From contig CAVXVB010000005.1 in assembly GCA_963765205.1 (NCBI GenBank), forward strand, positions 480,001 to 544,000: DNA of 64,000 bases, given 5' to 3'. The stretch's first letter is position 1, and every line of letters starts with the position of its first letter. The DNA comes from an uncultured Verrucomicrobiae bacterium (GTDB taxonomy: Bacteria; Verrucomicrobiota; Verrucomicrobiia; Opitutales; JABDGR01). Position numbers and translations under genes: made by a program. The notes under the pieces were generated by a model. It was not told the DNA's origin. It was given only the letters and a program-made list of their open reading frames with translations, and ran no database searches. Shown one piece after another: positions 11,557 through 62,499 of this stretch.

Positions 11557-11658
11557 AACGGTCAGGCACCCTACGGCACTCGCGAAGCCTGGTTACCGTT
11601 GCACCCTTCCGGGCCTGGCGGAGTTCACCGGTTCTACGTTGCATAGGACCCGACCGCC
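11557..11658 (-). ncRNA. ffs: Signal recognition particle RNA (small bacterial 4.5S type)
   Basis: Minus strand reads GGCGGUCGGGUCCUAUGCAACG...GCCAGGCCCGGAAGGGUGCAACGG...GUGCCGUAGGGUGCCUGACCGUU: helix-8 GGAA tetraloop with CAGG loop, paired ends, U-run after. Confidence 0.9.
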
Positions 11659-58564: not shown

Positions 58565-60013
58565 CTACACCTTGTCCGGCACGACGAAGGGTTTGCGGTA
58601 TTCAGTGGTAAGGAGAGCGTTCGCGTCGTCGCTGTTCGTGAATTTTTCCGTCTTCGGGTCGAATTCCAGCGCCGCACCGAGGGTCGCGGACGTTTTGTCC
58701 AAATCCACGCCATTCAAGCTGAGGTGCGCCGCCATCCGCTCGAAGGCCTCGCTCATCGTCGCATTGCCCTTGATTTGCTCGCGGATGACGCCGCCCGGCT
58801 GGGCCTTGCCGACGCGATAGGAAATGTTGGCCAAATGGCAGAGCGAACTGGAAAGGAACCCCTCCGTGATGGGCGCGTGCAGGTCGCTCACTTTGCGGCT
58901 GCGCACGGCGGCGATGAAGTTTGCCTCATGGTTCGACCCCCCGGAAAAATCCTTCAGCACCTTGCCGTCTTTGTCGGTGGCCTGCGCGCTGGTGTAAGTC
59001 GCCGGCACGATGACCCGCCCGCCTTCACATTCCACAATCACCCCGACGCTCTGGTTGTAAACTTTGTCCATCAGGGTGCTGCCCAGCCGCACCGGCAGCC
59101 CATGCACTTCAAAAATGAGCGGCGCGTTTTTATAGTCATGGACGACGGCCAGCGTATTTGGCGTTTCCCCGTCGTCCACATAACTCAGCCGCCCGCCGAT
59201 GCTGAGCACGCGCGGCGAGAGCGCCAGCTCGCCGAGGAACCAGCGCGCGATGTCCATCTGATGCACGCCCTGGTTGCCGATGTCGCCGTTGCCGTAGGGC
59301 CATTGCCAGTGCCAGTCGTAATGCAGCTTCGTGCGGCGCAGCGGCGCCTGCGGCGCGGGGCCGAGCCACAAATCGTAGTTCACCGTTGGCGGCACCGGCT
59401 GCGGCCCGGTCGTCAGGCCGATGCTGGCGCGCCGCTTGTAGCACAGGCCGCGCGCGGAAAGGATTTTTCCAATATTGCCCGCGCGCACCCACGCCACCGC
59501 CTCGATGATGCTGTCACTCGAGCGGGCTTGCGAGCCGACCTGGATGATGCGCTGGTATTTGTCGGCGGCCTCGATGATTTTGCGCCCCTCCCAAATGTTG
59601 TGGCACACGGGCTTTTCCAGATACACGTCCTTGCCCGCCTGGCACGCCCAAATCGCCTGGAGCGCGTGCTGGTGGTTCGGCGTGACGATGAAGACGGCGT
59701 CAATGTTGCCCTTGGCCAGCATATCCCGGTAATCGGCGTAGGTGTTGATCGTGAGGCCCTGCGCGCGCAGCGTTTTCGCCATGCCGTCGAGCACCGCCGA
59801 ATCCACGTCGCACAGCGCCGTAATGCGCGCGCCGGCCACGCTGGCCAGCTCCTTGGTGATGATGTCCTTGCCGCGGTTGTTAAAGCCGACGATGCCCAGG
59901 CGCACGTCGCTGTTCGCGCCTGCCACCTGCGCCCACGAGCGCGGCCGCAGGGTCGCGGCGGCCGTCGCGACGCCGGTGGTCTTCAAAAATGCTCGCCTGG
60001 AAATCCGGGGCAT
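58565..60013 (-). CDS. Tat-exported Gfo/Idh/MocA oxidoreductase
   Basis: SRRAFLK, TPNHQHA, DVYLEKP, NQGVHQMD. Confidence 0.9.
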   Translation of the reverse strand: MPRISRRAFLKTTGVATAAATLRPRSWAQVAGANSDVRLGIVGFNNRGKDIITKELASVAGARITALCDVDSAVLDGMAKTLRAQGLTINTYADYRDMLAKGNIDAVFIVTPNHQHALQAIWACQAGKDVYLEKPVCHNIWEGRKIIEAADKYQRIIQVGSQARSSDSIIEAVAWVRAGNIGKILSARGLCYKRRASIGLTTGPQPVPPTVNYDLWLGPAPQAPLRRTKLHYDWHWQWPYGNGDIGNQGVHQMDIARWFLGELALSPRVLSIGGRLSYVDDGETPNTLAVVHDYKNAPLIFEVHGLPVRLGSTLMDKVYNQSVGVIVECEGGRVIVPATYTSAQATDKDGKVLKDFSGGSNHEANFIAAVRSRKVSDLHAPITEGFLSSSLCHLANISYRVGKAQPGGVIREQIKGNATMSEAFERMAAHLSLNGVDLDKTSATLGAALEFDPKTEKFTNSDDANALLTTEYRKPFVVPDKV

Positions 60014-60274
60014 GGGGTGGGGGGCGGAAAGAGATGGAGTGGAGGCACGCCATCCTAGCCCCGGCCGCCGTATGGCAAGCCGACAGTCAGCGAAGAAAAC
60101 CTACCCCCCGGAAACCATGGATGGCCTGGATAACACGGAACCACGAAATCAAATAATAATATCAACTAAAAATTTTTATCAAATCTCTGGCCGCCTCCCA
60201 TTCATCCCATCCCTCCCATTTGTCCCATCCGTGGTAAAAAATTTCCCGAAAAAACACCAAAATTTCGCAAAAAG

Positions 60275-60427
60275 TTTTTCACAAGTTATTCACCGCGGGG
60301 TTATTCGCAGCCGTGAATAAGTGGTTCATTGGTTTATTCACTTATTTTCATGCACTAAGCCCCTGTTGGCGGCGAACTTGCGAAGTTGTTCACATGGGTG
60401 AAATTTTTATTACGCCAATGCTTCACA
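60275..60427. promoter_or_regulatory. Cluster of DnaA-box-like 9-mers
   Basis: TTTTTCACA 60275, TTATTCACC 60286, TTATTCGCA 60301, CGTGAATAA 60312, TTATTCACT 60334, TTGTTCACA 60386; compared with consensus TTWTNCACA. Confidence 0.55.
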
Positions 60428-60463: not shown

Positions 60464-60510
60464 TTGCGAAAATTTGCCCCCTATGCGATAGTGCGCACGG
60501 TTCTTTGAGA
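60464..60510 (+). promoter_or_regulatory. Sigma-70 promoter (extended -10) followed by a boxA-like element
   Basis: TTGCGA-N17-GATAGT with TG at 60484-85; GTTCTTTGAGA at 60500-60510. Confidence 0.6.
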
Positions 60511-61405
60511 GAACGGAAGGTTTGCGCAGGGGTTGCCTCGCAAGAGGTGGCCCACCGGCGGGGCCTTCTGGGATAATCCCGGGTAACCGGGGAAAGGTCG
60601 GGGTTAGTTGGTAGTCCCGGCCCCTCGCGGTCAGTCCCCATCTTCGGATGACGGACGCCCGAGGCATGTTTCACCCCTCCCGCCTTGGCGAGTCGCATCG
60701 CCGGGGTTCCTATTGCGACAAAAGGGAGGCGGCGGCCAGGTGCGCAAACGAATGCGCCACCAAGCCGAATGAGGACTGTGGCTGGTTCGTAGCCGCAGTC
60801 AACACAGGGTGACCCCAAGGATTGGGTCAAATTTGACTACCCTGCATACCAATCTGCCGGACACGGAGTCACGAGGGCACCTCGTGGGAAGGCTTTTCCC
60901 GGATGGGAAGAGTACGTAAAGCTCCGGGCCAGGCGGGAGGCGCGACGGTTCCAGAAGCGGGAGCCGCCCGGCCTGCATCACAGCCGTGGGCGCGCAAATA
61001 ACGCGTCGGCGGCCTGCACCATCAAATGTCCATTGAGGGATAAGAGGCAAGACCCGTACCCTTCAGGCCAACGCTCCGGGGGCAGTTCCCGGGGGCCGAC
61101 CTGAAGGACAGCGGTGACGAGGCTGTGTCGCAGCAGTCTCACCACCATGTGCGGCGCACTTCCCCGGCAGGGGATGGGCGAACCGTGCTGAAAGGCCTCA
61201 CCCAACAATCGCCGGGAGCAATCCGGGCGGCGGTCCTGCCAAGAGACCGATAATTCCGCGTTGCCGCGGGAACTGGCGTCGAGGAGCCGGCCGCCCACCT
61301 GCGAAGGTGCGAGCGCCCAAGGACCGGCGAATGGGAAAGAGCGTGTGGCGAGCGCCCACCCCCGTTTTTAGGCCCCGGAAGTTGCAAAACCTCCGGGGTC
61401 TTTTA
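60499..61405 (+). ncRNA. Giant structured non-coding RNA, probably MISL-class
   Basis: About 900 nt with no credible ORF; many GNRA/UUCG-capped stems with G-U pairs on the + strand; long-range helix 60520-28/60741-49; pseudoknot 60692-97/60714-19; own promoter and terminator. Confidence 0.78.
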
Positions 61406-61461: not shown

Positions 61462-62499
61462 ATGTCCGTTGACGCAACTAAGACCGCCCCCAGCGATGCT
61501 CCCCCCGCCCGCAAGGTCATCCTCACCTGCGCGCAGCCGACGGGGGCGCTGCATTTGGGCAATTACCTGGGGGCCGTCCAGAACTGGCGGCGAATGCAGG
61601 ATGACTACGAGTGCTACTTCGGCGTCGTAGATATGCACGCCATCACCCTGCCGTATGAGCCGGCCAAACTGCGGGCCTCCACGCTGGAACTGGTCGCGTG
61701 GTATATCGCCTGCGGACTCGATCCGGCCAAGGCGCATTTCTTTATCCAATCCCATGTCATCGGCCATGCCGAACTGGCCTGGGTGCTCGGTTGTTTGTGT
61801 CCGCTGGGCCAACTCGAGCGCATGACGCAGTTCAAGGACAAGTCCGCCAAGCAGGAGAGCATCGGCGCCGGACTGCTCTATTACCCGGTGCTGATGGCGG
61901 CGGACATCCTGCTCTATAATGCCGACGCCGTGCCCGTGGGCGAGGATCAGAAACAGCACCTCGAACTCGCGCGCGACCTCGCCGAAAAATTCAACCGCAC
62001 CTATTCTCCGACCTTCAAGGTGCCCGAGCCGTTTATCGCCAAGACCGGCGCACGCATCGCCTCGCTCGCGAACCCGGAGAAAAAAATGTCCAAGTCCGAC
62101 GAAGACCCCTCCGGCACGCTTTACCTGAACGACCCGCCCGCGGTGTTGCGCAAAAAAATCATGTCGGCCGTCACCGACTCCGGCGGCGAAGTTGTGGCGC
62201 GCGACGACAAGCCCGGCGTGACGAATTTGCTGCACATCCTCAGTGCCGTCACCGGCCGTGCGCTGTCGGAACTCGAAGCTGAATTTGCGGGCCAAGGCTA
62301 TGGTGCGTTTAAAGGCGCGGTCGCCGTTGCCGTCATCGCCACGCTCGAGCCCGTGCAGAAAAAATACGCCGAGTTGATGGCGAGCAAGGATCACTTGCTC
62401 GAAGTCATCAAAACCGGTGGCGACGTTGCGCAGAAGACGGCCTACAAAACCCTCGCCAAAGTTTACCGCAAAGTCGGCTTCCTCGAACGCGCGCGATAA
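61462..62499 (+). CDS. trpS: Tryptophan--tRNA ligase
   Basis: QPTGALHLGNY, RMTQFKDK, YPVLMAADIL, VPVGEDQKQH, KMSKS. Confidence 0.96.
   Translation: MSVDATKTAPSDAPPARKVILTCAQPTGALHLGNYLGAVQNWRRMQDDYECYFGVVDMHAITLPYEPAKLRASTLELVAWYIACGLDPAKAHFFIQSHVIGHAELAWVLGCLCPLGQLERMTQFKDKSAKQESIGAGLLYYPVLMAADILLYNADAVPVGEDQKQHLELARDLAEKFNRTYSPTFKVPEPFIAKTGARIASLANPEKKMSKSDEDPSGTLYLNDPPAVLRKKIMSAVTDSGGEVVARDDKPGVTNLLHILSAVTGRALSELEAEFAGQGYGAFKGAVAVAVIATLEPVQKKYAELMASKDHLLEVIKTGGDVAQKTAYKTLAKVYRKVGFLERAR

Follow-up and report, generated by a model that had tools for sequence, protein, structure and literature searches.

Between a divergently transcribed oxidoreductase gene and trpS, this uncultured Verrucomicrobiae genome carries some 900 nucleotides of hairpin-rich DNA, and the locus raises the question of which RNA, if any, it encodes, where such a gene begins and ends, and what the RNA and the DNA in front of it might do. 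The initial annotation had left the identity at a member of the MISL family or a new class of large RNA. MISL is a stand-alone noncoding gene with a terminator and without fixed neighbors, and it belongs to a small number of very large bacterial RNAs to which no function has been assigned and on which there is almost no literature. We presume the source paper of the family to be PMC5737381 (2017). The accessible portion of its main text does not name MISL, and the literature covered, with subscription papers mostly outside its scope, yielded only Ribonanza, the available part of which holds probing data for a MISL window.

An Rfam scan of the whole window, that is, the entire 64,000-nt stretch of DNA that was analyzed, gave two matches above cut-off, MISL (RF03079) and the SRP RNA. 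The first of these lies between the two protein-coding genes:

58565-60013, minus strand: divergent oxidoreductase of the sugar dehydrogenase type, outside the element (NCBIfam matches under their cut-offs)
60571-61356, plus strand: core of the MISL RNA (Rfam RF03079, whole model; 348.3 bits, cut-off 274.6)
61462-62499, plus strand: trpS, downstream and outside the element (TIGR00233, 348.6 bits)

The MISL match (E 1.5e-103) spans the full model, positions 1-751, and the hairpins of the sequence agree with the structure line of this entry, which is typed 'Gene; sRNA' and has its hosts in the Verrucomicrobiota. Between 60200 and 61500, no other family came near its cut-off at E<=10, and the models for GOLLD, ROOL, OLE, group I and II introns, RNase P, tmRNA, 6S, and SRP gave no match at that level. 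Since RF03079 is matched over its whole length and above its cut-off, a novel RNA class was dropped from consideration; the stretch is a full-length MISL RNA, a point on which we have practically no doubt, and the locus is a further copy of a family already known.

The limits of the gene extend beyond those of the model, which lacks the first 71 nt of the RNA and whose structure line cannot display pseudoknots:

60464-60492, plus strand: sigma-70-type promoter-like pair TTGCGA-17 nt-GATAGT, stopping 8 nt short of the G that opens the 5' element
60500-60514, plus strand: conserved 5' element GUUCUUUGAGAGAAC, a boxA-type sequence that forms a 4-bp hairpin with its loop in pseudoknot A; outside the Rfam model
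60514-60570, plus strand: leader stem-loop of variable length, holding the hairpin at 60530-60553 and the 5' arm of a rejected long-range helix
61370-61410, plus strand: intrinsic-terminator-like hairpin with a T-rich tail (-21.9 kcal/mol)

The predicted start lies about 70 nt upstream of the start of the model. An element with the consensus GTTC[T/C/A]TTG[A/G]NAGAAC, or a near variant, precedes the Rfam start by 39 to 158 nt in 126 of 128 loci, duplicates included, the other two being cut by contig ends, and its hairpin is paired in 273 of 276 cells among 69 aligned homologues. Because this conserved element at 60500-60514 falls outside the Rfam model, the limits proposed initially, 60499 to 61405, are better than those of Rfam. 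The corrected 5' end matters for probing or cryo-EM constructs: one that begins where the Rfam model does would be without pseudoknot A and might misfold. For the promoter and terminator that had been said to bound the unit, putative sites are present: TTGACA or TTGCG stands in relatives at the same offset as the -35 hexamer of the window, and a terminator-like hairpin follows MISL in 78 of the 79 homologues that could be scored. In a consensus scan, the promoter fell below threshold and the terminator hairpin was likewise unlisted. Of 97 distinct leaders, all but one are closed by a stem (median z of -3.1); in the window, 60515-60521 pairs with 60563-60569 at probabilities of 0.74 to 1.0.

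The claim that the unit is noncoding held as well. There is no conserved reading frame, and a protein frame is excluded by the indels relative to the window copy, which are multiples of 3 in only 330 of 2311 cases. MISL is present in RNA libraries: 24 RNA runs from 19 studies contain the stretch, and in all four runs compared, assembled contigs, several of them identical to the window, jointly cover 60515-61358 in pieces. Contigs from two studies begin at 60515 and contigs from two studies end at 61358, these being contig limits that speak to neither the ends nor the strand nor the level of a transcript. None of the contigs from the four runs lies over the promoter, the array of boxes upstream of it, the terminator, or the oxidoreductase gene, and trpS is met by shallow pieces only. 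The gene can be described as a self-contained unit of about 860 to 900 nt, with a promoter-like site, a noncoding body, and a terminator-like hairpin, which is usually single copy and chromosomal.

One copy of MISL is found in the source genome. Among 41 relatives, it was found in 17 (14 above the cut-off), with one copy apiece, and in a sample of the phylum it was found in 8 of 121 genomes, 7 of them from the same order; in both surveys few candidates were scored per genome, and remote copies can be missed. As it was not found in 24 of the 41 relatives and 113 of the 121 phylum genomes, MISL is not essential across the group. Nor is it a substitute for RNase P RNA, 6S RNA, tmRNA, or SRP RNA, since each of these is encoded elsewhere in the source genome, apart from MISL; the small SRP RNA gene of the window lies at 11557-11655 on the minus strand. 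A pattern scan recovered 114 MISL stretches, and the record titles of 113 name Verrucomicrobiota taxa, the remaining one saying 'bacterium.' When searched with the 5' 15-mer, the relatives gave two extra matches that are not MISL, and 20 further 15-mer regions included 5 MISL copies and 7 tmRNA leaders. One MISL copy belongs to another class and keeps both a box at -82 and the 5' word. Against the rRNA and the other loci of the source genome itself, the matches listed for MISL (the best 30) show no likeness beyond chance.

In a tree of 69 MISL copies, the genus and the family of the source genome form supported clades, with long branches flagged, while the neighboring genes vary by lineage, a pattern that points to vertical descent. 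The oxidoreductase and trpS adjoin MISL only in close kin; 176 flanking frames fell into 79 neighbor clusters, the largest of them lineage bound, and no conserved partner gene was found among them. In many Opitutaceae, the neighbors are a DEAH helicase and a translational GTPase. We note that in three lineages (L001, L012, and L059) the gene 3' of MISL is a translation gene of the same orientation, namely, trpS, a gene that by eye is asnS-like, and a GTPase that is presumably TypA-like. A mobile origin was rejected: phage and plasmid records gave no MISL matches, and no viral contig carries the 5' pattern of MISL. With a second pattern, three of seven matches in a viral database (L263, L268, and L269) were MISL pieces fused to unrelated frames on contigs of 2.2 to 2.4 kb, one with a phage maturation domain. 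Because two of these contigs share a partner sequence in opposite orientation and with different joints, they are probably assembly or library chimeras.

The plus strand folds at -443.9 kcal/mol, better than its shuffles (z of -5.29; none of 20 as good) and better than the minus strand (z of -3.67), in keeping with the strand assigned initially. For comparative analysis, 126 loci were reduced to 82 full-length copies and, once near-duplicates had been removed, to an alignment of 69 sequences with an effective number of 26.5. Against a tree-aware null, the covariation check that had been advised gave 8 column pairs at E<=0.2, all canonical, and 113 of 813 columns are at least 97% conserved. All ten strings quoted in the initial annotation occur where it placed them, with unequal standing as structure among the 69 homologues. 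The hairpins at 60578-60591 and 61060-61107 are paired in 343 of 345 and 488 of 550 cells, respectively, and the core of the one at 60774-60800 is conserved; those at 60530-60553, 60639-60650, and 61296-61309 are present as strings, but they fall in length-variable, poorly aligning parts. The 9-bp long-range helix gtttgcgca/tgcgcaaac (arms at 60520-60528 and 60741-60749), thought to close a domain of about 230 nt, failed: its pairing probability is 0.0 in the fold of 60500-60769, it is paired in 196 of 365 cells, and it reaches at least 9 bp in 3 of 69 homologues versus 2 in the control. The domain is correspondingly unsupported, the 5' arm lying within the local stem at 60514-60570. The initial description missed the boxA-type start of the unit, its pseudoknots, and the array of DnaA-box-like sequences upstream.

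The alignment supports a conserved fold in which five predicted loop pairings cross the nested structure:

60506-60673, plus strand: pseudoknot A, 60506-60510 (loop of the 5' hairpin) with 60669-60673, mutual best partners
60608-60852, plus strand: pseudoknot C, 60608-60612 with 60848-60852, paired in 68 to 69 of 69 homologues at each of five positions
60692-60719, plus strand: pseudoknot B, loop GUCGCA (60692-60697) with UGCGAC (60714-60719)
61014-61278, plus strand: pseudoknots D and E, around a long helix of 61044-61048 with 61195-61199

In pseudoknot A, 63 of 69 homologues have a canonical pair at 60509:60670 (including UA in 38, AU in 11, CG in 5, GU in 5, and UG in 3), with an E value of about 1.5 in the all-pairs scan, which is not significant alone. 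The pairing is canonical in 39 of 41 held-out nonredundant loci, which are still kin, versus 24.9 expected (3 were unscorable), and the copy from another class has a G-C form of the pair. As loop pairing A is supported, the 5' element is to be regarded as part of the folded RNA. Pseudoknot B reaches 5 bp or more in all but one of the 69 homologues, with a mean of 5.7 versus 3.5 when shuffled and with compensatory variants. Two-sided changes also occur in pseudoknot C, single pairs not being significant, and the same holds for single pairs in D and E. Pseudoknot D (61014-61018 with 61129-61133) is paired in 58 to 68 of 68 homologues per position, with a CG/UA switch at 61017:61130; pseudoknot E (61237-61241 with 61274-61278) is paired in 69 of 69 at all five positions, with UA, CG, and UG at 61240:61275; and the long helix is paired in 344 of 345 cells. 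Two further candidates, 61071-61075 with 61275-61279 and 61130-61133 with 61236-61239, were discarded because better partners outcompeted them.

A pseudoknotted core of this kind, crossed by five loop pairings and containing long invariant single-stranded words, could be an active site, and MISL could then be a ribozyme or a ligand-binding RNA; catalysis is frequent among large complex bacterial RNAs, according to the accessible part of PMC5737381. We regard this reading as rather unlikely: no likeness to a catalytic family appeared at E<=10, the catalytic triad of group II intron domain V is absent and an AGC-like word varies, no neighboring enzyme or substrate gene is conserved, and the RNase P RNA has its own gene. 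GOLLD, ROOL, OLE, and raiA resemble MISL in size, in having several pseudoknots, and in their unknown biochemistry. They differ in that MISL has no Rfam match to them and no phage or plasmid match and in that the loops of its 69 homologues give no clear signal of symmetric kissing or palindromic-loop covariation and no convincing adjacent-base covariation. The part available of 10.1101/2024.12.08.627333 describes the covarying loop pairings of ROOL and GOLLD as bridges between chains, and the five loop pairings of MISL could form within one chain or between chains. By analogy with these RNAs, MISL may act as a scaffold, a role to which we give somewhat less than an even chance.

The 15-nt 5' element matches the boxA of the rRNA leader in the source genome, where GTTCTTTGA is a word of both the rRNA leader and the rRNA spacer. 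Six rRNA leaders from five other genomes carry G[T/C]TCTTTGAAA (four of six) or CTTCTTTGAAA (two of six), and GTTCCTTGAGA occurs additionally farther upstream in two of those leaders. As described in the accessible part of PMC13753749, boxA recruits NusB-S10, and NusB of Bacillus subtilis binds AUGAUCUUUGAAA; the gammaproteobacterial consensus is given as GYTCTTTAANA in the portion available of PMC5725501. NusB is encoded in the source genome. Like the rrn leader, MISL would be a long untranslated transcript headed by this word, which is base paired later, and in six of six leaders tested the rRNA word lies within the 16S processing stalk. The two arrangements differ: in MISL, the word stands at the very start and is held by a 4-bp hairpin and a 5-bp pseudoknot, whereas the rrn stalk has 40 bp. 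A stalk-like 9-bp pairing of the 5' word with 61279-61287 (-10.3 kcal/mol) is left as a weak candidate, with a C.A mismatch in 30 of 69 homologues and no two-sided change. The commonest MISL variant, GTTCCTTGA (76 of 113), departs from the rRNA word by a single change, C at position 5, and this form is found in only two of the six rRNA leaders.

The RNase P and SRP RNA genes of the source genome have no boxA, the single boxA match upstream of 6S RNA is a 1-mismatch site 162 nt away, and the sole carrier among 55 tRNA genes checked is the tRNA in the rRNA spacer. On balance, we think it likely that the 5' word functions as a boxA, while the C variant and the use of the word in pseudoknot A leave room for a second view, that it may be conserved for the pseudoknot alone. 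A 10-nt form of the word also precedes tmRNA in the source genome (G000:C9:790160), and in family f33, which has no MISL match in 11 genomes, the 15-mer heads the tmRNA gene in seven of the eight hits examined, out of 10 (L240 and L242 to L247). This distribution suggests boxA-type control of tmRNA in the order, a subject on which a literature search combining boxA with tmRNA, SuhB, and ChIP-seq found nothing.

Upstream of the promoter lies a second distinctive element:

60275-60427, strand not assigned: array of DnaA-box-like 9-mers, matches to TTATTCACA

Six 9-mers with 1 mismatch to TTATTCACA start at -225, -214, -199, -188 (minus strand), -166, and -114 from position 60500 (60275-60394), and a seventh, with 2 mismatches, stands at -81. 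With 6 boxes per 400 bp, the cluster is denser than any other in the 4.0-Mb genome, the next having 3. At least one box occurs within 260 bp upstream in 81 of 88 nonredundant homologues, and the 88 together hold 206 boxes, versus 4.0 when the sequence is shuffled and 8 when the pattern is reversed; seven loci are box-less at 1 mismatch, and four of those seven are still so at 2 mismatches. Offsets of about -81, -101, -115, and -62 recur, and in the 88 loci not one box starts less than 45 nt from the start site. The last base of the box is mostly C rather than A (TTATTCACC, 107; TTATTCACA, 41), and the boxes of the Opitutaceae include inverted pairs. Four genome bins have two MISL copies (L035, L078, L088, and L099 against L082, L058, L127, and L047), one copy per pair being without boxes, in one case with only 241 bp of upstream sequence; in the tree, L078 is sister to L088, and L035 is sister to the box-less L038.

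The relaxed last base, the inverted pairs, and the box-less copies would suit another transcription factor, in which case, with the 5' word being structural, MISL would be a stable RNA without a link to DnaA or Nus. That reading is unlikely in our view, for the same 9-mers stand in tandem with a 2-nt spacer before dnaA in the source genome and the 5' word is common to the heads of rRNA and tmRNA transcripts. The 9-mer also occurs upstream of mnmG (gidA) and in the gap before nrdB, about 525 bp from the called start, smc has three 1-mismatch boxes upstream, and a perfect box heads dnaA in four of five other genomes. DnaA of the source genome retains the RDHGTVIHA helix. Only 3 of the 18 perfect boxes of the genome lie near known DnaA targets, and of 24 box sites inspected, 20 are next to unrelated genes or within frames. 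According to the accessible part of the review PMC8203912, dnaA and nrdAB are classic DnaA targets, and DnaA activates or represses nrdAB. As at DnaA-regulated promoters (dnaA and nrdAB) and the box clusters of B. subtilis, the tandem 9-mers of MISL stand upstream of a sigma-70 promoter; here, the target is a noncoding RNA gene. The terms 'small RNA' and 'non-coding' are absent from the part of PMC8203912 available, and a literature search for DnaA boxes with noncoding RNA and Verrucomicrobia found nothing. Taken together, these sequence patterns make it quite probable that DnaA binds the array.

Our main reading, to which we assign a probability of roughly 40%, is that MISL is a stable, compact RNA made in the manner of rRNA, with Nus antitermination, that its synthesis is tied to DnaA, and that it serves as a scaffold. 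DnaA on phased boxes upstream of the -35 hexamer would tune transcription, more likely as an activator, and the supply of MISL would follow the replication or growth state. The boxA word at the 5' end would load NusB-S10 and an rRNA-type antitermination complex, which would shield the long untranslated transcript from Rho and aid its folding; the word would then be buried in pseudoknot A, much as the boxA of rRNA comes to lie within the 16S processing stalk. In the weakest step, the folded RNA, with its conserved core, would be a stable trans-acting scaffold that binds protein or self-assembles through its loop pairings, as in OLE, raiA, ROOL, and GOLLD. For a first test of function, the array and the boxA word are defined targets that can be mutated.

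Density invites another interpretation of the array, in which the locus is chiefly DNA, a sink for DnaA off the origin like datA or the B. subtilis DnaA box clusters, with strong MISL transcription setting the amount of DnaA held; MISL RNA itself may also contact DnaA. With a matrix of MISL boxes, the cluster at MISL also scores highest in all three 200-kb stretches taken from the surroundings of MISL in other genomes, a result that is partly circular because the matrix was built from those boxes. B. subtilis clusters outside oriC restrain initiation, as reported in the part available of PMC3245932, and Hda was not found above its curated cut-off in any of 41 genomes. Yet Hda is missing with and without MISL alike, many homologues have only one or two boxes (at least three in 45 of 95), and the offsets of the boxes to the start site are fixed, as expected of promoter sites. 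MISL lies 0.55 to 1.9 Mb from parS in five chromosomes, the IHF consensus is found in only 8 of 94 upstream regions, and a role as DNA would leave 113 near-invariant RNA positions unexplained. We consider such a sink improbable. In a combined form, MISL would be a large RNA made like rRNA under the control of DnaA and would feed back on replication; the array would be the principal sink for DnaA away from the origin in these bacteria, and the availability of DnaA would be set by the RNA or by its transcription. This is a similarly long shot; if true, a large structured RNA would be part of the circuit that controls initiation.

The same density of boxes, with a GC skew that in the source genome is -55 per mille before the locus and +17 after it, could mark a replication origin, with MISL as an origin-flanking transcript like gidA or mioC. 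This is highly improbable. Because the skew keeps its sign across MISL in three of three near-closed chromosomes (-51/-38, -86/-53, and +56/+52), the array is probably not oriC, and it was set aside as such, parS also being distant; the skew of the source genome itself is ambiguous. In two of the three chromosomes, the skew passes from negative to positive at parS (the third having +13/-43), and the strongest turn in the source genome is at the parS beside mnmG (-109/+63), with weaker turns at dnaA and at MISL. The change at MISL includes an rRNA operon 10 kb away, and the AT-rich stretch upstream belongs to a copy of a dispersed CACGGAT/ATCCGTG repeat rather than to an unwinding element. Octamer polarity and dif-like scans of the source genome were too noisy to inform. 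In five chromosomes, MISL is 0.28 to 1.5 Mb from dnaA.

Several observations on the surroundings stand apart from these readings. The rRNA operon just mentioned, the sole one found in the assembly, is downstream of MISL and outside the window (G000:C5:551003); in five other chromosomes, the rRNA operon is far from MISL. Positions 60114-60235 of the window are a degenerate copy of the dispersed inverted repeat (CACGGAT ... ATCCGTG), the word of which, ATCCGTGGT, occurs 95 times in the genome versus 7 for the reversed word. A DnaA box stands upstream of the mnmG gene (G000:C7:84292-86537), the frame of which contains two parS palindromes and a long low-complexity insertion and lies at the sharpest skew minimum of the genome. 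The mnmG locus is the best candidate for the origin region and is far from dnaA. In the five near-closed chromosomes (G041, G042, G043, G044, and G019), dnaA and the main parS are 0.27 to 2.2 Mb apart, and dnaA is, by these distances, not linked to the likely origin.
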